64,000 nt of DNA from NCBI GenBank assembly GCA_049589355.1, contig JBAWAP010000384.1, positions 2,349 to 66,348 of the forward strand. Direction: 5' to 3'. Source of the DNA: Anaerolineae bacterium (GTDB lineage: Bacteria > Chloroflexota > Anaerolineae > VGOG01). The first letter of the stretch is position 1, and every line of letters starts with the position of its first letter. The position numbers and the translations under genes were made by a program. The notes under the pieces were generated by a model that was given only the letters and a program-made list of their open reading frames with translations, did not search any database and was not told the origin of the DNA. Of the stretch, positions 7,366 through 48,564 are shown one piece after another.

Positions 7366-8651
7366 CTTTTAGCAAGGGTGAAGGGGTTCTTCACGTAGGT
7401 TCCAGGGGGATATGGCTTCACCACGACCTCGACGTCTTCCCCGCTGAGGAAGCGGCCCAGCCGTTGGGCCTCGGTCATTAGGGCCTTGTTCTCGACATCC
7501 TGCCAGAGGAGCAATTCGATGGCAGCCTCTAGCTCCCGCCAGACGCCCACCGCCCTCCCATTGACCCAGACGGTGGCGAAGGCATTGCCTGCCCGGTCGA
7601 AGACCTTCTCGTAGTGCTCCGGCGCGAGAAAGCGGCGGCGATCCCGATACCCCATAAGGTAGGGATCGAGGCTGGGAAGCAAGTTGGCAGTCGGCTCTGG
7701 CCCAAGCTGGGTCTCCTGTAGCTGTTGATGATCCGTCGCCAGCATCAAATAGCCCCCGCCCAGGCCCTCAATCTCGGTCTCCACGATCTCGTCGTCCAAG
7801 GCGGACAGGGCCCTCCTTGTCTCCCCTTTGCTGAAGCCGCTCCACCAGGCGATGTCCTCCAGGGTGGCCGGGCCAAGGGCGGCGAGGTAACTTCGCACCA
7901 AGCGAGCCTGTGCCTCATCTGGTGTGAGGGATTCCAGATCTACATCGGGCAACCAGACAGCCAGGGAAGCGTACTCGTGCAGGGTGCTGCGCCAACTGCC
8001 GCGGGGTTTGGCCCTCACCAGAAGGCCCAGGATGCACATGCCTGGCACGATCCTCGAACCCAGGCTAAATTCACCCGCGTAGGGCTTGTCCACGTTGTAC
8101 TTGACCTTGATATTGAGCTCCGGCACCAGTTCGCTCATCTCCGACACCGTGGATGGCCCTCTGTCTGCCAGAATCTCCGCGATCCGCTGATGCAGGCGGT
8201 CCAGCGCCTCCGCTTCTTCTCCCTCTTTGCACAGCCCGGCTTGCACCAGCAACCCGCGTGCCGCGCTCGGGAACCGCCTTTGCACTTGCTTCTTCGTGGC
8301 CTGGAAGAAGGCCGGTAGCTGGTCTGAGGGGACGATGTGCAGTGTCCTGCGCATGGATATTACCCTAACCAGCCTTCTGTTCTCGTACAGTGCCGCATCG
8401 AGTTGCTGACGACTAAACCCTTTCACTCTGCTCCAGAGGGAGAGATAGGGGGTGAGGGCTGACGTGGCGTGCAGGGCGCAGATGTCCTCGACGACCTGCA
8501 CGACATCGTCCCCCCGCGTCTCCGGAGCAAGGTGCTGCTTGCTCAACAGAAACCAGTTGACTTGATCCGGAGTCACTGGCCTGATGCCCACGGTCACCCT
8601 CTGTAGACCTGTTCGTACTTGGCCCCGCACTCCCTGTGCAATTGCAGCCAC
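7362..8651 (-). CDS. Winged-helix DNA glycosylase, YcaQ/AlkZ (DUF1006) family-like
   Basis: ~400 aa with wHTH region and 'RRTLHIVP' motif characteristic of the YcaQ/AlkZ interstrand-crosslink glycosylase family. 5' end overlaps the next ORF, so the true start is probably an internal GTG/TTG. Confidence 0.55.
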   Translation of the reverse strand: MAAIAQGVRGQVRTGLQRVTVGIRPVTPDQVNWFLLSKQHLAPETRGDDVVQVVEDICALHATSALTPYLSLWSRVKGFSRQQLDAALYENRRLVRVISMRRTLHIVPSDQLPAFFQATKKQVQRRFPSAARGLLVQAGLCKEGEEAEALDRLHQRIAEILADRGPSTVSEMSELVPELNIKVKYNVDKPYAGEFSLGSRIVPGMCILGLLVRAKPRGSWRSTLHEYASLAVWLPDVDLESLTPDEAQARLVRSYLAALGPATLEDIAWWSGFSKGETRRALSALDDEIVETEIEGLGGGYLMLATDHQQLQETQLGPEPTANLLPSLDPYLMGYRDRRRFLAPEHYEKVFDRAGNAFATVWVNGRAVGVWRELEAAIELLLWQDVENKALMTEAQRLGRFLSGEDVEVVVKPYPPGTYVKNPFTLAKR

Positions 8652-9004
8652 CTGTCCCGCTGACGCTGGTCGGCCCAGTATGCCTCCTGCTCGTCCAGCC
8701 AGGCCTCCACGCCGATGCGCCGTATCCGCCTCAGGTTCTCCAGCACGGGCAGGTGGGTTCGCCAGATAGGGTCGTAGGCGAACTGGATGATGCGCGTGCA
8801 GGGGAAATCGTCACACTCAGCGCAGCTTTCGAGTCCCTTCTCGGTGATACAACGATAGATGTAGCAGGCACGGCGATGAGGCCCCGCCGCGCAGTGATCG
8901 CAGTCGCAGGCGCAGCCGTGACAGGTCCTATCCAGCAAAAACTCGCTGCAGTTGCCGCAGTAGAGACCGCATGGAGCAGCGAGCTTCTTTCGATCGCTCA
9001 ACAT
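8594..9004 (-). CDS. DUF3795 cysteine-rich protein
   Basis: CGLYCGNC...C..C.C..C...C.EC..FPC pattern. Confidence 0.7.
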   Translation of the reverse strand: MLSDRKKLAAPCGLYCGNCSEFLLDRTCHGCACDCDHCAAGPHRRACYIYRCITEKGLESCAECDDFPCTRIIQFAYDPIWRTHLPVLENLRRIRRIGVEAWLDEQEAYWADQRQRDRWLQLHRECGAKYEQVYRG

Positions 9005-10423: not shown

Positions 10424-10966
10424 CTATGTCGTTCGCGCCATCAATAGTTCATCGTAAAAGACACTGTCGTAGTAAAGGGCTTGTGGTTCGATTCCGTAAA
10501 CCTGAAACCCACAGTGAGCATAGCAGCGAATCGCACGAGTATTCGTTGTGACCACCGCTAGTTTGACAATCTTTACATCCTGAGTTCGTGCCCAATCCGC
10601 GCAAGCAGTTACGAGTCCCTCGGCAATACGAAACCCGCGCCAATCGGGTCGGACGTACATTCCCACGATATTTGCGCTGTGCTGTATCTTGGGCGAGTTC
10701 GTGCGAGTAATGCCACACATGCCTATCACCTGTTGGTCGTGAACGGCAAAATAAATCATGACCGCGCTATCCGTGCTGTTAAACCGAAGTCTCTCTGTCC
10801 AGAAGGTCATCGGCTTGGCAAGGTTCGCCGCGTAATCCGAGGAAAATGCCTCAGGATGATTACGCAAAGCCTCTAAGCGCAAGTCGCGATAGGCTGGGGC
10901 ATCCTCCTCTCTTGCTGAACGTATTGTTACTGTTCCACGCGGAGTAGTGATAGGTGTATCCATTGT
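10424..10966 (-). CDS. GNAT family N-acetyltransferase
   Basis: Acetyl-CoA binding motif region (VRPDWRGFRIAEGLV). Start placed at internal MDTPI. Confidence 0.75.
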   Translation of the reverse strand, partial: TMDTPITTPRGTVTIRSAREEDAPAYRDLRLEALRNHPEAFSSDYAANLAKPMTFWTERLRFNSTDSAVMIYFAVHDQQVIGMCGITRTNSPKIQHSANIVGMYVRPDWRGFRIAEGLVTACADWARTQDVKIVKLAVVTTNTRAIRCYAHCGFQVYGIEPQALYYDSVFYDELLMARTT

Positions 10967-10977
10967 CCTTTGCTGAT

Positions 10978-11586
10978 TCAAGTTGGAATTGGACACCGAC
11001 CATAGTGCGAGCGGCATGGCAGAGAACTCGCCGCACGACGCAGAAAGACGCGCCGGGTAAGTGGTGGGCTCTTGGACAACTGAGCTTGAGCGCGCTCTGG
11101 TGTGAGGTGATAGACCGCCCCTGGACTGAAAAGCAACACATCATCATGCCACGATAGGTATGGCCGGTGGAAATGTCCGAAAATGATGGCATCCACCTGG
11201 CTGAAGGCTCGCAACACCTGTCGCTGGAAGCCACCCCACCAGAAGCGGCGGCCAGTGAACAGTTCGTTGGAAAGCATGCTGGGCAACTCTCGCCACACTG
11301 ATCGCCGACCGTGAACTAAACCAATCCGTGCCTTTCCTATCTCAATGACAGTCTTCACGGGCAGGTCGAGGGCGTCGTGATCACCCTTGACCGCCACCAC
11401 CGGAGCAAGTAACCTCAACTCGTCCAACACCTCTGAGTTGGTAATGTCGCCAGCGTGCAAGATCAGATCCACATCCTGAAAGAGATGCACAATCCCCTTG
11501 GGCAGCGCAGGCAAAAACTCGGGTACGTGTGTGTCAGCAATCACTCCTATCCTGTAAGCGGCCATCGGTAACTCTTTATGCGCCAC
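10978..11586 (-). CDS. Metallophosphoesterase (YfcE/MJ0936-like)
   Basis: IGVIADTHVP...HAGDI...GHFHRP metal-binding motifs. Confidence 0.8.
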   Translation of the reverse strand: MAHKELPMAAYRIGVIADTHVPEFLPALPKGIVHLFQDVDLILHAGDITNSEVLDELRLLAPVVAVKGDHDALDLPVKTVIEIGKARIGLVHGRRSVWRELPSMLSNELFTGRRFWWGGFQRQVLRAFSQVDAIIFGHFHRPYLSWHDDVLLFSPGAVYHLTPERAQAQLSKSPPLTRRVFLRRAASSLPCRSHYGRCPIPT

Positions 11587-42045: not shown

Positions 42046-43236
42046 ATGAAGAACGAACACGAGGTCGTTATCGTCAGTGCGGCGCGCACTCCCATTGGCC
42101 GTTTCCAGGGTACAATATCCAACATCCCTGCCTCAGAGCTGGGGGCGGTGGCCATCAAGGCCGCAGTGGAGCGGGCGGGCATCAACCCGGGCTCCATCGC
42201 TGAGGTGCTGATGGGCAACGTCGTGCAAGCTGGACAAGGCCAGGCCCCCGCTCGCCAGGCTGCCATCAAAGCAGGCATCCCTCCCTTCGTCGGGGCCACG
42301 ACGGTGAACAAGATCTGCGGTTCGGGCCTGAAGACGGTAATGCTGGCTGCGGCGATGATCCAGGTTGGCGATGGCGAGATATTCGTCGCCGGGGGAATGG
42401 AGAGCATGAACATGGGGCCTTACGTCCTGCCCGAGGCCCGCTTTGGCTACCGCTTGGGCGATGGCCAACTGGTGGACGCTATGGTTCACGACGGGCTGTG
42501 GTGCTCTTTCACCAACCAGCACATGGGCAACTCGGCCGAGTGGATCGCTAGAGAATACGGCCTCACTCGTCAGGAGTTGGACGAGTACGCTTACCACAGC
42601 CATAAAAAGGCCATCGCTGCCATTGATGCGGGCAAGTTCAAGGAGGAGATCGTGCCGGTGGAGGTTCCGCAGCGCAAGGGGCCGCCTATCCTCTTCGATA
42701 CCGACGAGTGCCCCCGTCGTGATACCTCACTGGAAGCTCTGACCAGGCTCAAGCCCGCTTTCCAAAAGGACGGCTTGGTTACTGCTGGTAACTCGCCGGG
42801 CATCACTGATGGGGCAGCCGCGGTGGTGGTAATGAGCCGGGGGAAGGCTGATGAGCTGGGGATAGAGCCGCTGGCGCGGATCGTCGGCTATGATCAGGCG
42901 GCCGTAGAACCGCTGAAGGTGTTCACCGCTCCCATCTTTGCCGTGCGGAAGCTGCTGGAGAAGACTGGCTACAGCCTGGACGATTTGGACCTCATTGAGG
43001 CAAATGAGGCCTTCGCGGCCCAGGTTGTGGCCGACGGCAAGGCGCTGGGGTGGGATTGGGACAGGGTGAACGTCAACGGCGGGGCCATCGCCCTGGGCCA
43101 TCCCATTGGCTGCAGCGGGGCGCGTATCCTGACGACCCTCATCTACGCCCTGAAGGATCGCGGCCTGAAGACCGGCCTGGCTACCCTCTGCCTCGGGGGA
43201 GGGGAAGCAGTGGCGATGATTGTCGAACTGATCTAG
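42046..43236 (+). CDS. Acetyl-CoA C-acetyltransferase (thiolase II)
   Basis: [22 protein letters not shown] (active Cys), [17 protein letters not shown]-terminal signature. Confidence 0.9.
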
Positions 43237-44693
43237 AGCAACTCCAGCAGTCTCCTGACCCCTATCGGGATCAGGTCACCGGCCGCGCCGCTTCCAATGG
43301 CATCCATCCCCACAAGATAGAGACCCTCGATGGGCGTGCGAGGATCCAAACGCATATCCCCTACCTGTCCGAAGGTCTGGGCGCATCCGGCCCCGGTCCA
43401 ACCTCCCAGGAAAAACATGGGCACCATCATCTCGGCGATTTCGTCCAGGTGGGGAAAGAAGGCCCTCAGGTCGGCCATGGCCAACTCGAGCTCCGCCCGC
43501 CAGTCTTTGGAGAGCAAGGGGAGGAAGACGTCCACCGTATGTCTTCCCGGCGGGGCGACACCTGGGTCGAAGAAGGTTGGGGCAAACAGGCCCACCACCC
43601 GGTCGGTGCCTGTCGTCATGAGCATCGGCACGCCCTCCCAGAGGGGCTCGGTGGTGCCCAGAATGATGGCCACGCACTCCAAGGGGATGAACCCTTCGAT
43701 GCGCTCCACGTAATCGGGGGGCAAGTTCTCCCTCCCAACGAGGTTTATCAGCCCCCTGACTCCGCCGTTGTGGATGACCACATCGGCCGCCACCTCATCG
43801 CCATTGGCCAAGATCACCCCCCTGGCTCGCCCATCCTCAAGCAGGAGGCTAGCTACCTCCGTACGAGTGAAGATCTCACCATCGTGGGCCTCGATCACTT
43901 TGGCCAGGGCCTCGATGATCGCCCTCACCCCTCCCACGGGAAAGGCGAATTCCAGCCCAGCGGCCCGCGTATCCATAGTGATTTGAACATACTCGCTGGC
44001 AGGGAAGTCCTCGGCCCTCACTCCTGAGGCCGTGCCCACGATGGTGTCGAGTACTGCCATCAGGTCATCGTTCTGGACGTATCTCCCCACGTAATCCGTG
44101 GTGCTCATATCGTGGGGTGCGCCCTTCTTCCCTTCGATGAGGGCACGCAGGAAGCCTCGCATGTCCTCACGGGAGAGCATCTGGTCCAGCGAGGAATAAC
44201 GCCGTCCGTCCTTGAACCATATCCCGGACTGCTGGGCCGCACCTTTCTCCCTGAGGGTGATATACCGGACATCGGCGCCCACGTCTTTCAGGAAGCGGCC
44301 GATGTTGCACTGCTCGCCCAGGGAGGTCCAGGCGGCGGTGGTGACGGCGTAGCCGTGGTAATCGAGCTCGGTATAGCGCCCGCCGATGAAGGAGAGCCTC
44401 TCGAAGACACCCACCTTTCGGCCCTCTTTGGCCAGCCAGCCGGCAGCCATCAGCCCCCCTATGCCCGCGCCGACGACCACGACATCGTAGCGGTCTTGAT
44501 ACTTGGCCTTGGACAGTTCGATAGGAGACGCGGGGACGAGGCAGCGGTTCGGGCAGGCGAAGAAGCAGATATTGCAATCGTTGCAGCGCTCCTCATCCAC
44601 CCTGGCCCAACCATCGGAGGAGATAGCATCCTGGGGACAACTCAGCAGGCAATAGCCGCAGCCGGTGCAATTCTCCATCTCAACTTTCATCAC
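43233..44693 (-). CDS. FAD-dependent oxidoreductase with N-terminal 4Fe-4S ferredoxin domain
   Basis: CTGCGYCLLSCP...CNDCNICFFACP then VVVGAGIGGLMAAG dinucleotide fold. Confidence 0.75.
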   Translation of the reverse strand: MMKVEMENCTGCGYCLLSCPQDAISSDGWARVDEERCNDCNICFFACPNRCLVPASPIELSKAKYQDRYDVVVVGAGIGGLMAAGWLAKEGRKVGVFERLSFIGGRYTELDYHGYAVTTAAWTSLGEQCNIGRFLKDVGADVRYITLREKGAAQQSGIWFKDGRRYSSLDQMLSREDMRGFLRALIEGKKGAPHDMSTTDYVGRYVQNDDLMAVLDTIVGTASGVRAEDFPASEYVQITMDTRAAGLEFAFPVGGVRAIIEALAKVIEAHDGEIFTRTEVASLLLEDGRARGVILANGDEVAADVVIHNGGVRGLINLVGRENLPPDYVERIEGFIPLECVAIILGTTEPLWEGVPMLMTTGTDRVVGLFAPTFFDPGVAPPGRHTVDVFLPLLSKDWRAELELAMADLRAFFPHLDEIAEMMVPMFFLGGWTGAGCAQTFGQVGDMRLDPRTPIEGLYLVGMDAIGSGAAGDLIPIGVRRLLELL

Positions 44694-44791
44694 TATCCCC
44701 CTCCCACAAGTCCTCAGCCACCCATGCCAATCCCAACTCCTCCAGCTTCTTCCGGCTTGGCTTGCCAGTGGACAACTTGCCTGCCTTCTCT

Positions 44792-45451
44792 CTATTCACA
44801 TTGGGCTTCCACTTCCAGGGCAAACCGCTCAGCCTCGCCGCAAATACCCCGTACCCGATCAAAGCGGGCCACCACTTGAGGAGCCAGATGAATATCGTAC
44901 TGGCGGGTGGTAGGTTTTTTGATCTTACCGTCAGACGTTCGCTTCAACTGAAAGCCCAAGTCGCTGAAATTTGCCAGCCGTTCTAGTGGTTCCAGATCAC
45001 ATTCGAGCAAGCTGTCTCCACCAGCAATCGCTGCGCAGACCCAGGCGTCACTGGTTTTGGATGGCACGGCTATAATGGCATTAGGAGGAAGTTGACCACC
45101 AGCCCATTGGATGACGAGACCACGCAAAGCATTGGTAGTGTCGGAAGCGGGAGGACACGGTCGTTCCAGATTGATCGCGGGGTTGTGGGCAATGCTCGCG
45201 TCTATGTGAATCACCAACAGATCAATAGGATCACCGTATTCTTGCATAAACTGGATCAAACGGGGACCATAGCGTTGACACCAGCGCTTTACACCTGCCC
45301 ATCCCGTCACAGCGTCTCCTGCACTGGCGGACAGTTCATCAATAGGGGGATGAATGCGTCGAACCCCCTCAACAGCCGGGCAGAGCTTTTTGATAACAGC
45401 CTCGAAAACGGGGAAATCCCGCGTCCCTTCTACGACGATGCCAGCGATCAT
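44792..45451 (-). CDS. DUF4276-like small protein (partner of upstream AAA/ABC ATPase)
   Basis: ~220 aa beginning MIAGIVVEGTRDFPVFEAV (VEGxxE/D N-terminal acidic motif typical of DUF4276). 12-nt overlap with the ATPase gene. Confidence 0.4.
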   Translation of the reverse strand: MIAGIVVEGTRDFPVFEAVIKKLCPAVEGVRRIHPPIDELSASAGDAVTGWAGVKRWCQRYGPRLIQFMQEYGDPIDLLVIHIDASIAHNPAINLERPCPPASDTTNALRGLVIQWAGGQLPPNAIIAVPSKTSDAWVCAAIAGGDSLLECDLEPLERLANFSDLGFQLKRTSDGKIKKPTTRQYDIHLAPQVVARFDRVRGICGEAERFALEVEAQCE

Positions 45452-45461
45452 GGTCTTTATC

Positions 45462-46691
45462 CTATAGCAGCCTGGGCACGCCACCCAGTCGCCCCATCAC
45501 CCATAGCTCGGAAAGCGTAACGTGCTTCTGCTCCAGCTCTTGCAGCAGAGCCTCTGTCACCCGTAGGGGCTTAATTTGAGTCATACCTTCGTGGCGGTCT
45601 ACAGTGAACAACCGGATGCGTTCATCGCGCAGGTTGAGACCATCCAGCACCATTGGGTTATGAGTAGTGAGGAGCACCTGCCGTTGATTTTCCGATGCCA
45701 ATACCTGCTCGCAGAACAGTTTCGTCAAGGCGCGTGCCAGCAGAGGGTGCATCGCTTGATCAAAGTTGTCAATCGCCAGCAAACGAGGCGCTCCGGGGTG
45801 TAGTGCCAACACCAACGTGAATAGCACGTACATCGCACCTTCGCTGGCGTCATAGCCCGATAAAACGTTTCGTCCTTCCCGCATCCAGGTATCTTGGAAA
45901 CGAACAATCAAGCGGGTAGCGGGAACACTAGGAGAGAGAATCTGTCGCGAGGGAGGACCGACAGAAATGCTTGCTACCCAGTCCAGTAGCTCCTGTAACT
46001 CATCCAATTCGAGGCTGCCGAACGTTCTTGCACGCGGATCGAGCAGGGTTTCAATAGCTTCAGCGAGTTGGCCACCAAAGAGTCCAACCGGAACGCGAGG
46101 GGCCGGGTCGGGGGCAATGCCGCGTAGGATCGGCGTTGTCGGTGCAAAGATAGCAAAATCTTCCAGCACCGACAACAAGGCAGCCGGTGCTCCCTCACAT
46201 GCCTCATGTCCCCGAACAAGGGCGGCGAAACCTGTATCAGGACGCATTGGGTACTCAGTACGCCGAGCACGTTGGCCCAACGAGGCCCCTCGTGGCGAAC
46301 GCCCCATGACTTTGCGATTGCCACGGAGTATACTTTCTGTCATGTATTCCCAGGCCGGTTTGGGTTCTTCAATAATGTTATCTAAACCCACTTTGTAGGT
46401 GGCGCTCTCTTCGGCTGTTCTCCATGTAGCCGAGAGGGTGATGAAACGGCGATATTTTTTCTCCCTTTGAGAGAATTTGTATAACGCAGGCACACCAGGC
46501 CGCACACCACGCCGCAGTAGCGCCAGATCATCCACCCGACCAGCGGCAGCAGCACCCAGCACACCCAAAGCTTCCAGGAAATTACTTTTACCGCTGCCGT
46601 TGGCGCCGACGAATACATTGACTTGACCCAACTCCAGATTCTCAAGTTCCCAGATTGACTTGAATCCTTCTACGTTAATGGTGTGTAACAT
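45462..46691 (-). CDS. AAA_21/ABC-type ATPase (OLD/AriA/AbiLi-like architecture)
   Basis: MLHTINVEGFKSIWELE...GANGSGKSNFLEALGV Walker A; C-terminal LLAIDNFDQAMHP (Walker B/D-loop) and LLTTHNP H-loop. ATG at 46691 with GGAGGTGGAG RBS. Confidence 0.7.
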   Translation of the reverse strand: MLHTINVEGFKSIWELENLELGQVNVFVGANGSGKSNFLEALGVLGAAAAGRVDDLALLRRGVRPGVPALYKFSQREKKYRRFITLSATWRTAEESATYKVGLDNIIEEPKPAWEYMTESILRGNRKVMGRSPRGASLGQRARRTEYPMRPDTGFAALVRGHEACEGAPAALLSVLEDFAIFAPTTPILRGIAPDPAPRVPVGLFGGQLAEAIETLLDPRARTFGSLELDELQELLDWVASISVGPPSRQILSPSVPATRLIVRFQDTWMREGRNVLSGYDASEGAMYVLFTLVLALHPGAPRLLAIDNFDQAMHPLLARALTKLFCEQVLASENQRQVLLTTHNPMVLDGLNLRDERIRLFTVDRHEGMTQIKPLRVTEALLQELEQKHVTLSELWVMGRLGGVPRLL

Positions 46692-46716
46692 ACTCCACCT
46701 CCTGTGGGAGAATAGT

Positions 46717-48564
46717 TCAAGCTGCGTTCCACAACTCGTCAGCAGCGAAGCCCAAGCCCAGCCTCTCCAGCACCTCTCGCGTGGGCTTGCCCGTTGCCGG
46801 ATCCCAGTCCCTGGCCTCGTAGTACTCACCGAGCATCAGTTCCAGGTCAGGCACGTGGCCCTGGGTCCCACCCTCGGAGAGGGGCTGCAAGACCAGTTTG
46901 GGCAGCCTGTCGTCGGCACGGGTCAGCCCCAGGCGATGGTTGAAAGCCCGTTTCAGGTTCCAGATGCGCTCGCCCGCGAGCAGCATGTCGTCAGTGGTCA
47001 CCTCCCAGCCAGTGGCTGTTGCCAGCAGGTCAATATAGCTCTGGGCGGGGGCATTGGAGAAGTAGCACACGACGAGGGAGTTGCAGAAGCTACGCCAGTC
47101 CTGATGGCGAGCCACAATCTGGGCCTTGCCCTCCATCTGAAAACGGTCGGTCATAGGGATTCCCAGCTCTTCCAGCGATCGTCCGCTCTCCACCCAATAC
47201 ATGTCGCTCTGATTGTGGCTTCCCCCAAGAGGTGAGGTGGCGTAGACCAGGGCCATGGCCGAAAAAGCGCGGGGATCGTGCATGCCCAACTCCAGGCCAT
47301 TGACCTGGACGGCCAGTTCCTCCGCTCCATACTGCTGACCCAGCCATCGTGAGCCCTCGGCCAAGGCGTCACCCAAGCTCTCCCTTCGTGCGATCATCCC
47401 GATCAGTTCGGCGACTGTGTCCGGATCGCCCCATCGCAGAGCCAAGCCGCTCGTCTCGGCAGGGCCGATGATGCCACACTCGAAGAGGTGATGGGCGAAG
47501 GCGATGGTGGAGCCAGTGCTGATGGTGTCCAGGCCGTAGGTGTCGCAGAGGTGGCCCAGATAGGTGACGGCAGGGAGGTTGTCAATGAGCAATATGGTGC
47601 CCAAAGCAGCCACGGTCTCGTACTCTGGCCCCTTGGTCTCCGCTAGCTTATACTTTCCCTCTTTAACCTCCACCTTGCGTCCGCAGGCGACGGGGCAGCC
47701 GTAGCAGGTGGAGTAGCCGGTGAGGATCGTCTCGCCCATTGTCGAGCCACTGAGAGCTTCCGCCTCGGGAAATTCCCCTTCGGTAAAATACCGGTTGGGA
47801 GGGCTCCCCAAGAGCATGAGGTAATCGAGAGTTCCGGCTGTTCCCGTGACCCGAAGCGCCTCGGTGAGGGAATCGTCCTTGAGGACACTCAGCATCTCCC
47901 GGACGAAGGTCTTAAAATGCTCCTCCTCAGCCAAAGGCACCTGTCCATTGCCACGCACGGCCACGGCTTTGAGGTTCTTGGAGCCCATGACCGTACCCAT
48001 GCCGGTCCGGGCTGCTGCTCGCCCCTTGTCGCTGATGATGGCCGCGTACTTGACCAGGTTCTCACCAGCCGGGCCGATGCAGGCCACTCTGGTCTTAGCG
48101 TCGCCCATTTCCTCCCTGATAGCTTCCTGGGTCTCGAAAGTACCCTTGCCCCAGAGGTGCTTGGCGTCCCGAAGGGTGGCCTTGCCATCGGCGATGTGAA
48201 GGTACACAGGCTCCGGCGCTTTGCCCTTGATGATGATGCCATCATAGCCAGCGAACCTCAACTCGGGGCCGAAAAAGCCACCAGCATTGGCCTCGCCCCA
48301 GAGGCCGGTGAGGGGCGAACGGGCGCAGACCACAAAGCGACCGCAGGAGGGGGCGCGGGTGCCCGTGAGTGGGCCGGTCATGAAGAACAGCGGATTCACG
48401 GAATCTAACGGATGAACGGAAGCATCGAGCATGTCGTAAATGTAGCGGCAGGCCAGCCCGCTGCCGCCGATGAATTGGTTGGCGTAGTTTTCGTTCAAGG
48501 GTTCGTCCTCGATCTTGCCACTGGTCAGATCAACGACCAGTAGTTTGCCCATGTAGCCGTTCAA
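46717..48564 (-). CDS. Aldehyde:ferredoxin oxidoreductase (tungsten-containing AOR family)
   Basis: 615 aa, N-terminal MGKLLVVDLTSGKI and conserved AOR domains. Confidence 0.9.
   Translation of the reverse strand: MNGYMGKLLVVDLTSGKIEDEPLNENYANQFIGGSGLACRYIYDMLDASVHPLDSVNPLFFMTGPLTGTRAPSCGRFVVCARSPLTGLWGEANAGGFFGPELRFAGYDGIIIKGKAPEPVYLHIADGKATLRDAKHLWGKGTFETQEAIREEMGDAKTRVACIGPAGENLVKYAAIISDKGRAAARTGMGTVMGSKNLKAVAVRGNGQVPLAEEEHFKTFVREMLSVLKDDSLTEALRVTGTAGTLDYLMLLGSPPNRYFTEGEFPEAEALSGSTMGETILTGYSTCYGCPVACGRKVEVKEGKYKLAETKGPEYETVAALGTILLIDNLPAVTYLGHLCDTYGLDTISTGSTIAFAHHLFECGIIGPAETSGLALRWGDPDTVAELIGMIARRESLGDALAEGSRWLGQQYGAEELAVQVNGLELGMHDPRAFSAMALVYATSPLGGSHNQSDMYWVESGRSLEELGIPMTDRFQMEGKAQIVARHQDWRSFCNSLVVCYFSNAPAQSYIDLLATATGWEVTTDDMLLAGERIWNLKRAFNHRLGLTRADDRLPKLVLQPLSEGGTQGHVPDLELMLGEYYEARDWDPATGKPTREVLERLGLGFAADELWNAA

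Follow-up and report, generated by a model that had tools for sequence, protein, structure and literature searches.

In PARIS, Septu, Gabija and retron effectors, an ATP-binding cassette (ABC) ATPase controls a nuclease (literature including PMC12065111). A further group of such pairs has been catalogued in PADLOC-DB v2, where PDC-M31 is one of 145 'phage defence candidates' (PDCs) obtained by "guilt-by-embedding", with genes located inside BREX, DISARM or Type I restriction-modification (RM) systems as the starting point (Payne et al., bioRxiv 10.1101/2024.01.29.577857). PDC-M31 is the cassette FAM_00005>>FAM_00304, with 102 RefSeq instances. Its ATPase family FAM_00005 is shared with HEC-01, a combination of an ATPase and a TOPRIM protein, and PDCs are less associated with other defence systems (Payne et al., bioRxiv 10.1101/2024.01.29.577857). 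The preprint does not mention a mechanism for PDC-M31, an asparagine in its Walker B motif or target duplications flanking it. We analyzed a 64,000-nt stretch of DNA from an Anaerolineae bacterium (contig JBAWAP010000384.1, hereafter the window), in which two adjacent genes, A and B, encode an ABC ATPase and a small partner protein. An original prediction, made from the letters of the DNA, had proposed this pair as a candidate defence module. Judged by its profile matches, the pair is a divergent member of the candidate family PDC-M31, and in the window it is, as comparison with relatives indicates, a horizontally acquired insertion at the 3' end of an aldehyde:ferredoxin oxidoreductase (AOR) gene. 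The genes and the translation signal of A are:

45462-46691, minus strand: gene A (PDC-M31A), an open reading frame (ORF) of 409 amino acids plus stop, ABC ATPase head of the SMC/Rad50/PtuA-like type

44792-45451, minus strand: gene B (PDC-M31B), an ORF of 219 amino acids plus stop, predicted Toprim-like alpha/beta domain followed by a C-terminal helical bundle

46693-46702, minus strand: strong Shine-Dalgarno sequence of gene A, GGAGGTGGAG, read from the sequence

Protein A matches the PADLOC-DB profile PDC-M31A with an E-value of 3.1e-142 (residues 1-407 on profile positions 1-394 of 395), and protein B matches the PDC-M31B profile PDLC04571 with 3.3e-31 (residues 4-217 on positions 7-229 of 233) as well as two further PDC-M31B models. 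The gene order of PDC-M31, with B following A directly on the same strand, is present too, and the pair is recognised by PADLOC as this candidate system. A copy on an Enterobacter plasmid is canonical PDC-M31 (A 4e-184, B 3e-92). The window copy diverges from it, with only 23% identity between the two B proteins; it carries the motif D-A-S where most of the family has D-A-D, and it comes from a metagenome-assembled genome (MAG) of an uncultured member of the Anaerolineae, not from a RefSeq isolate. Weaker PADLOC matches of A were obtained with HEC-01A, AbiLi, AriA, PDC-M07A, NsnB and mad3. In the existing annotation of the 81.7-kb MAG contig, A is an 'AAA family ATPase' and B a 'hypothetical protein'.

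Gene A starts with an ATG at 46691, preceded by the Shine-Dalgarno sequence given above, so that the predicted own ribosome-binding site and start are confirmed; the gene ends with a TAG at 45462-45464, and the encoded protein begins MLHTINVEGFKS. The ATPase, announced as 410 amino acids long, has 409 residues plus stop and contains both motifs named for it, the Walker A motif GANGSGKSN (G29-ANGSGKS-N37) and the H-loop LLTTHNP (T342-T-H344-N-P), in addition to the signature A282-SEG. The Walker A motif, the A-S-E-G signature, D308 and H344 show little or no variation across 51 members of the A family. The Walker B motif reads I307-D308-N309-F-D311. In ABC ATPases the residue after the Walker B aspartate is normally the catalytic glutamate, and glutamate occupies this position in OLD when it is aligned with A; protein A has an asparagine instead, as do 50 of the 51 PDC-M31A members. 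From this family-wide exchange we infer slow or absent ATP hydrolysis: A, although probably able to bind ATP, would be an ATP-gated switch and not a motor. The tetrapeptide AIDN corresponds to residues 306-309 (window 45765-45776), and a conserved aspartate lies three residues past the Walker B aspartate.

Pfam searches with A returned AAA_21 (7e-22), AAA_15 (1.5e-12) and SMC_N, and a search of NCBIfam gave nothing specific. Of the proposed AAA_21/OLD type, the AAA_21 part therefore stands, while membership in OLD does not, since A and B are two separate ORFs. The sole solved relative of A that was found by sequence is Thermus OLD (E 1.7e-4). In the comparison table for gene A, the tabulated values are 18-19 for SMC and Rad50 heads, 17.7 for Septu PtuA, 17.3-17.6 for the retron Ec83 and Eco7 ATPases, 17.1 for the retron Eco8 OLD, 15.6 for AriA, 14.0 for GajA, 13.9 for RecF and 12.7 for Thermus OLD.

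Gene B extends from an ATG at 45451 to a TAG at 44792-44794 and encodes a protein that begins MIAGIVVEGTRDFPVF; its 219 residues plus stop agree with the 220 amino acids predicted. A 12-nt overlap of the two genes had also been claimed, which was a miscount: the stop codon of A (45462-45464) and the start codon of B are separated by a 10-nt gap. An alternative in-frame GTG at 45484 would create a 23-nt overlap. Since all 18 homologues (18/18) begin at the MIAG position, we regard 45451 as the true start of B.

The conserved residues of B are E8, G9, D12, W51, D84, C99-P-P, P130-S-K132, W137, E150-C151, K179 and Y185. In the structural model (pLDDT 88), in which strands and helices alternate, strand b1 (residues 2-6) is followed by E8-G9 and D12, strand b3 (78-82) by D84-A-S86 and strand b4 (125-128) by P-S-K132, and the C-terminal part is a helical bundle. 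A glutamate after b1 and a DxD motif after b3 are the defining positions of Toprim domains (PMC12065111). E8 is invariant in sets of 60 and 45 family members and D84 is invariant as well; position 86 is an aspartate in 40 of 45 relatives and a serine or threonine in the Anaerolineae clade to which the window belongs.

Profile searches place B only distantly. Pfam searches with the window protein returned no family at E<=1, DUF4276 included, and NCBIfam likewise none, so that the resemblance to DUF4276 that had been read from the N-terminus is not borne out. When 60 members of the B family were scanned, sub-threshold matches to DUF4276 appeared in 9/60 (best E 0.002), to OLD-like_TOPRIM in four and to Toprim in one; the family consensus compared to Pfam gave noise only and no DUF4276. 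This consensus matches HEC-01B at 1.6e-5 over residues 1-145, the Toprim core, and the window protein itself matches no HEC-01B model at E<=1. A profile of the 60 homologues had no meaningful match among PDB sequences, and a Foldseek search of the B model against the PDB no significant one. On the basis of the conserved residues, the model and these weak matches, B is most likely a remote protein of the Toprim superfamily. Its assignment to the DUF4276, DUF4435 or OLD families was rejected, as no match to a hidden Markov model (HMM) of these families reached threshold. One homologue, P0016 (338 aa), is 72% identical over 69% of B and is annotated with Pfam domains of S-adenosylmethionine (SAM) methyltransferases, which a fusion, a truncation or an error in gene calling could explain.

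How the pair relates to the named defence systems follows from these matches. The architecture is supported as that of PARIS, AbiL, HEC-01 and split OLD, namely two genes for an ABC ATPase and a small Toprim-like partner. The earlier comparison with PARIS, AbiL and OLD therefore holds for the architectural class; membership in these systems was rejected because B has no AriB, AbiLii, DUF4435 or OLD-Toprim match. HEC-01 (Hma-embedded candidate, ABC ATPase plus TOPRIM) shares the two-gene logic and the ATPase family FAM_00005, and HEC-01A matches the window protein at 7.5e-27. The partners differ, being FAM_00291 and FAM_02481 in HEC-01 and FAM_00304 in PDC-M31, and the two were curated as separate cassettes by Payne et al. 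In PARIS the ABC ATPase AriA works with the DUF4435 Toprim nuclease AriB; the window B lacks a match to the DUF4435 or AriB HMM, has 219 aa where AriB has about 300, and the match between A and AriA is partial. AbiLi matches A at 3.7e-23 (profile positions 49-287 of 326), but B has no AbiLii match, and the scores of A on AriA and AbiLi are far below its score on PDC-M31A. OLD-family nucleases and Gabija GajA carry the ABC ATPase fused to the Toprim domain, whereas the window pair consists of two ORFs divided by a stop codon and the 10-nt gap. OLD has acidic Walker B residues where A has D-N, and B has Ser86 at the second aspartate of DxD. Septu PtuA and the retron ATPases (Ec83, Eco7) are partnered with HNH nucleases, and their similarity to A is confined to the N-terminal P-loop region. 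DUF4276 (PF14103) is a Toprim-superfamily effector paired with AAA_15/21 ATPases (PMC12065111) and occurs as Mad4 of MADS and in some Menshen NsnC; B is at most a remote superfamily relative of it.

The surroundings of the pair in the window are metabolic. As predicted, it lies between the AOR gene and a gene for a flavin adenine dinucleotide (FAD) oxidoreductase. The elements of the insertion and its flanks are:

44770-46728, minus strand: inserted unit of ~1.96 kb, consisting of a 37-nt leader, A, a 10-nt spacer, B and a 22-nt tail

46717-48564: AOR gene, flanking A

43233-44693, minus strand: 4Fe-4S/FAD oxidoreductase gene with a GTG start, flanking the B side

46729-46794, minus strand: left copy of the direct repeat, serving today as the functional AOR 3' end (...TGKPTREVLERLGLGFAADELW)

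44704-44769, minus strand: right copy of the direct repeat, consisting of a displaced AOR 3'-end remnant that encodes STGKPSRKKLEELGLAWVAEDLW, 22 nt past the B stop

Three relatives (L063, L064 and L066) are colinear with the window on both sides and lack the stretch 43260-46719, which comprises A, B and the FAD oxidoreductase gene. Their identity to the window is 86-88% for AOR, ~90% for the thiolase and about 80-89% for the major facilitator superfamily (MFS) transporter and the HIT protein; the wider neighbours in the window are these last three genes together with those for an iron-containing alcohol dehydrogenase (Fe-ADH) and SCP2. The G+C content at third codon positions (GC3) is 0.55 for A and 0.52 for B, compared to 0.76-0.84 for AOR, the FAD oxidoreductase, Fe-ADH and thiolase, and a similar dip in GC at A and B is found in other Anaerolineae carriers. 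The two AOR ends are about 70% identical in a local alignment of 66 nt (z = 12.5 compared to shuffles). This duplication was missed by a default repeat search and was found by comparison with the cassette-free relatives. In a tblastn search, the remnant is 82% identical to the C-terminus of the cassette-free AOR of L063 (E 5e-9). Because of the colinear relatives that do not have the cassette, the atypical composition and the displaced AOR remnant, we conclude from the sequence comparison that the cassette is a horizontally acquired insertion, and the claim of a module inserted between metabolic genes is upheld. The inserted unit plus one repeat copy amounts to about 2.03 kb.

The two AOR ends differ in their matches to orthologous AOR ends, which are 18 of 22 residues for the remnant and 15 of 22 for the functional copy. 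The functional end resembles the AOR ends of the cassette-bearing Anaerolineae L080, L081 and L075. Since the functional end is carrier-like and the remnant ortholog-like, import of a donor-type AOR end is favoured: the cassette would have entered together with this end by Campbell-type or homologous recombination, and a fresh duplication fits less well. The stop codon of the remnant abuts the start of the FAD oxidoreductase gene (GATAGTGATG), and the ancestral arrangement was therefore an operon of AOR and FAD oxidoreductase. The FAD oxidoreductase gene was considered as a part of the insertion and rejected, given its host-like GC3 of 0.78, its lack of linkage to A and B elsewhere and its start next to the remnant stop; its absence from L063, L064 and L066 implies a separate gain or loss event. 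In L001 and L006, A and B are 83% and 71-75% identical to those of the window, and AOR, Fe-ADH and SCP2 only 45-59%. The higher identity of the cassette than of its neighbours therefore points to exchange among lineages.

The position next to AOR raises the possibility that the pair works with the AOR operon, for instance as a cofactor or assembly ATPase. A and B directly follow AOR in the window, in L001-L010, in L080 and in L081; the AOR stop codon (46717-46719) and the start codon of A are just 25 nt apart. No minus-strand sigma-70-like promoter was detected between AOR and A, and no intrinsic terminator there or in the region 3' of B, so that co-transcription of AOR and A is possible. Nevertheless, this explanation is effectively refuted. 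The colinear relatives L063, L064 and L066 with their 86-88% identical AOR and the same SCP2-FeADH-AOR synteny do without the pair, and a functional link to AOR was rejected on these grounds. Furthermore, the pair lies upstream of SCP2 in L075 and elsewhere in L078, in 47 genomes from other phyla it is surrounded by genes that have no relation to AOR, and insertion into the AOR 3' end accounts for the linkage.

Flanking direct repeats were not confined to the window. We compared 400 nt upstream of A with 500 nt downstream of B in 47 cassette loci, using 258 random placements of the same span as a control. Repeats scoring >=30 were present in 6 of the 47 loci (L020 and L024 being the same site) and in none of the 258 controls. 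Besides the window, five independent sites have locus-specific repeats of 49-178 nt with 88-100% identity around leader, A and B, which were confirmed by a second repeat search:

L034, Binatia, 8611-8719 / 10718-10826: 109/109 nt identical, 3' end of a nicotinate phosphoribosyltransferase (NAPRTase) gene

L049, Binatia, 8480-8637 / 10925-11072: about 150 nt, 3' end of an amidohydrolase gene

L036, Bryobacteraceae, 8535-8678 / 10704-10851: about 146 nt, 5' end of a Type I hsdM gene

L022, Acidobacteriia, 8687-8735 / 10692-10743: about 50 nt, 3' end of a histidine kinase gene

L020 / L024, Halochromatium and a related MAG, L020 8419-8595 / 10694-10869: about 177 nt, 3' end of pglW (between PglW and PglX, BREX type 2)

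The downstream copy begins 0-22 nt past the B stop in 6 of 7 loci (5/6 independent sites), and the upstream copy ends 37-177 nt before the start codon of A. Two cassettes in Binatia occupy different sites and are alike only over leader, A and B, with 79% identity in nucleotides. Since the locus-specific repeats bracket just these three parts, the alignments show leader, A and B as a discrete insertion unit, and the cassette looks like a discrete mobile unit. No recombinase or transposase is encoded inside the unit. Two of the six scarred sites, the window counted, are in or beside defence operons, one inside BREX type 2 and one next to Type I RM, a share that is far above that of chance placement.

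These scars could mean that the cassette is primarily a selfish mobile unit, in which the ATPase and the Toprim protein serve their own insertion by staggered breakage and joining with target duplications of 50-180 bp. That the cassette is embedded in BREX and RM operons would, on this view, be a by-product of its mobility, and it might or might not confer defence as well. The five further sites with their repeats, the 66-nt pair in the window, the sharp right-hand boundary close to the B stop, the two Binatia cassettes that share the unit alone and the lack of an internal recombinase or transposase are all in line with it, and Toprim domains catalyse the breakage and rejoining of DNA in topoisomerases. 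Yet we know of no transposition chemistry that uses an ABC ATPase together with a small Toprim protein. In addition, inspection by eye showed neither terminal inverted repeats nor conserved motifs at the cassette ends, the length of the repeats varies widely and 40 of the 47 loci have none. In the window itself the remnant is more ortholog-like than the functional copy, which favours homologous or Campbell-type import. We therefore consider a primarily selfish unit unlikely. It is likewise doubtful that PDC-M31 is, as a family, a self-contained mobile cassette of ~2 kb (leader, ABC ATPase and Toprim protein) that duplicates 50-180 bp of its target at gene ends. In such a cassette the Toprim protein would break and join DNA, possibly via the near-invariant K179 and Y185 of its helical domain, and the hydrolysis-impaired ATPase would bind the target DNA.

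Conservation of the pair extends far beyond the Anaerolineae. Of 60 loci, drawn from at least 12 phyla, 59 have A directly 5' of B in the same orientation, and the lone exception looks degraded. The groups concerned include Armatimonadota, Planctomycetota, Acidobacteriota, Myxococcota, Latescibacterota, Binatia, Cyanobacteria, Nitrospirota and Pseudomonadota; between the two genes there is either a small gap or an overlap of 8 nt. Purifying selection acts on both, with dN/dS values of 0.08-0.10 for A and 0.08-0.2 for B. Purifying selection and the 59/60 linkage together argue that the pair is not a chance arrangement. The contig MT837299.1 ('Bacteriophage sp.', L062 4604-6498), an unannotated 7.2-kb human faecal contig with an unverified phage label, contains a pair with 43% identity for A and 25% for B.

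An accessory function in DNA repair or recombination, analogous to the ABC ATPase RecF with the Toprim protein RecR or to SbcC/Rad50 with its nuclease, is hard to reconcile with this distribution. The distribution is patchy, with only 902 clusters of the B family (50% identity, E<=1e-3) among 1.84 billion representative proteins; close relatives of the window lack the pair, its composition is atypical, and it is found on a conjugative plasmid beside CBASS and inside BREX. Moreover, a coiled coil is absent from A, and DNA-clamp-like features are absent from both proteins. A repair pair is thus very improbable.

The neighbourhoods of the cassette are mixed. In a minority of loci the cassette is embedded in or adjacent to BREX, Type I RM, CBASS or toxin-antitoxin (TA) modules, and it is also co-located with PIN modules. 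In Halochromatium glycolicum DSM 11080 (L020 4278-19454) it separates PglW from PglX in a BREX type 2 (Pgl) system, with BrxC/PglY coming next. In the Bryobacteraceae MAG L036 it lies directly upstream of Type I RM hsdM-hsdS; hsdM-hsdS is followed there by a protein matching the PADLOC candidate PDC-S57 (L036 10709-14056, 1.8e-74). The canonical copy on the conjugative MOBF plasmid pE5_001 of Enterobacter hormaechei (L061 13877-18810) is found between tra genes and a CBASS-like operon (SAVED effector, ThiF-like and MPN proteins) with a tyrosine integrase. In Anaerolineae relatives the pair is part of a variable stretch between mfd and the dcw cluster. This stretch also holds HicAB, MqsA-like, DUF3368 and MNT/HepT genes (L006 474-1226 and 3496-4279; L010 3770-4200; L075 4413-5199).

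Such surroundings would also suit a TA-like or stress-responsive addiction module, in which A neutralises a toxic nuclease B and the pair stabilises host DNA with no specific sensing of phage. HicAB, MNT/HepT and PIN modules occur nearby, the two genes are tightly packed into an operon (gap of 10 nt or overlap of 8 nt), the pair is patchily distributed and horizontally transferred, and the Pfam title of AAA_21 is 'putative AbiEii toxin, Type IV TA system'. A large ABC ATPase would, however, be unusual as a simple antitoxin, and the characterised pairs of ABC ATPase and nuclease (PARIS, Septu, Gabija and retron effectors) all confer phage-triggered immunity. We regard an addiction module as improbable, and its distinction from abortive infection is partly semantic.

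The explanation we hold to be probable, with some reserve, is that the cassette is a horizontally acquired defence module with an ATPase-controlled Toprim nuclease, which is proposed because of the analogy with PARIS, Septu, Gabija and retron effectors. A and B form a two-gene, translationally linked operon. A, an ABC head that has no coiled coil, may dimerise on ATP and act as a sensor or scaffold. B would be a Toprim-fold protein with an acidic cluster (E8, D12, D84, D/S86 and E150) and a helical C-terminal domain, similar to the nuclease modules of OLD and AriB. A would keep B inactive until a phage cue releases or activates it; freed B might then cut nucleic acid, either by DNA nicking as in OLD and Gabija or by tRNA cleavage as in PARIS, and this cleavage would halt the infection via growth arrest. 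Complex formation of A and B, the nuclease activity, the trigger and the anti-phage function are all suggested by analogy with these systems.

Several observations speak for this defence module. Both proteins have full-length PDC-M31 matches, and the next-best matches of A are the defence ATPases HEC-01A, AbiLi, AriA, NsnB and mad3. In addition, there are the Toprim-like positions in the B model, the match of the family consensus to HEC-01B and the sub-threshold Toprim-type matches of family members, the 59/60 linkage, the low dN/dS values, the BREX, Type I RM and CBASS contexts, the TA-rich region, the presence/absence polymorphism and the atypical GC3. Other points weigh against it. The serine or threonine at the second aspartate of DxD in B may weaken or abolish metal-dependent catalysis, and the Walker B asparagine leaves the role of ATP turnover in A unclear. 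When the three nearest genes per side were surveyed in 45 genomes, no recurrent defence family was found near the cassette; the neighbours were mostly diverse housekeeping genes, with only scattered RM, BREX, WYL and TA matches. The expected residence of the pair in defence islands applies only to the minority of loci described above. No homologue was found in IMG/VR viral contigs or complete E. coli genomes, a literature search for PDC-M31 by name returned no paper, and the PDCs are described as untested in the source preprint (Payne et al., bioRxiv 10.1101/2024.01.29.577857).

A candidate system that can be detected by PADLOC would by itself be an ordinary finding. New here are the divergent member of a catalogued candidate family, the family-wide asparagine in Walker B and the recurrent long target duplications. 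PDC-M31 is widespread in uncultured phyla (Chloroflexota, Binatia, Acidobacteriota, Planctomycetota, Latescibacterota, Myxococcota and Cyanobacteria), and the lack of the catalytic Walker B glutamate throughout the family predicts an ATP-binding switch and not a hydrolysing motor. The window and its cassette-free relatives provide a clean natural before-and-after pair for one insertion, and Halochromatium glycolicum DSM 11080 is a culturable host that carries a scarred cassette. Should the mobile cassette be real, it would belong to a type of transposable or integrative element that has not been described before and would explain the small 'defence candidates' embedded inside BREX and RM operons. 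The target duplications, with their sharp boundary at the B stop, point to an insertion mechanism not obviously explained by the known classes of mobile elements considered, and they would represent the molecular scar of how defence genes become "embedded".

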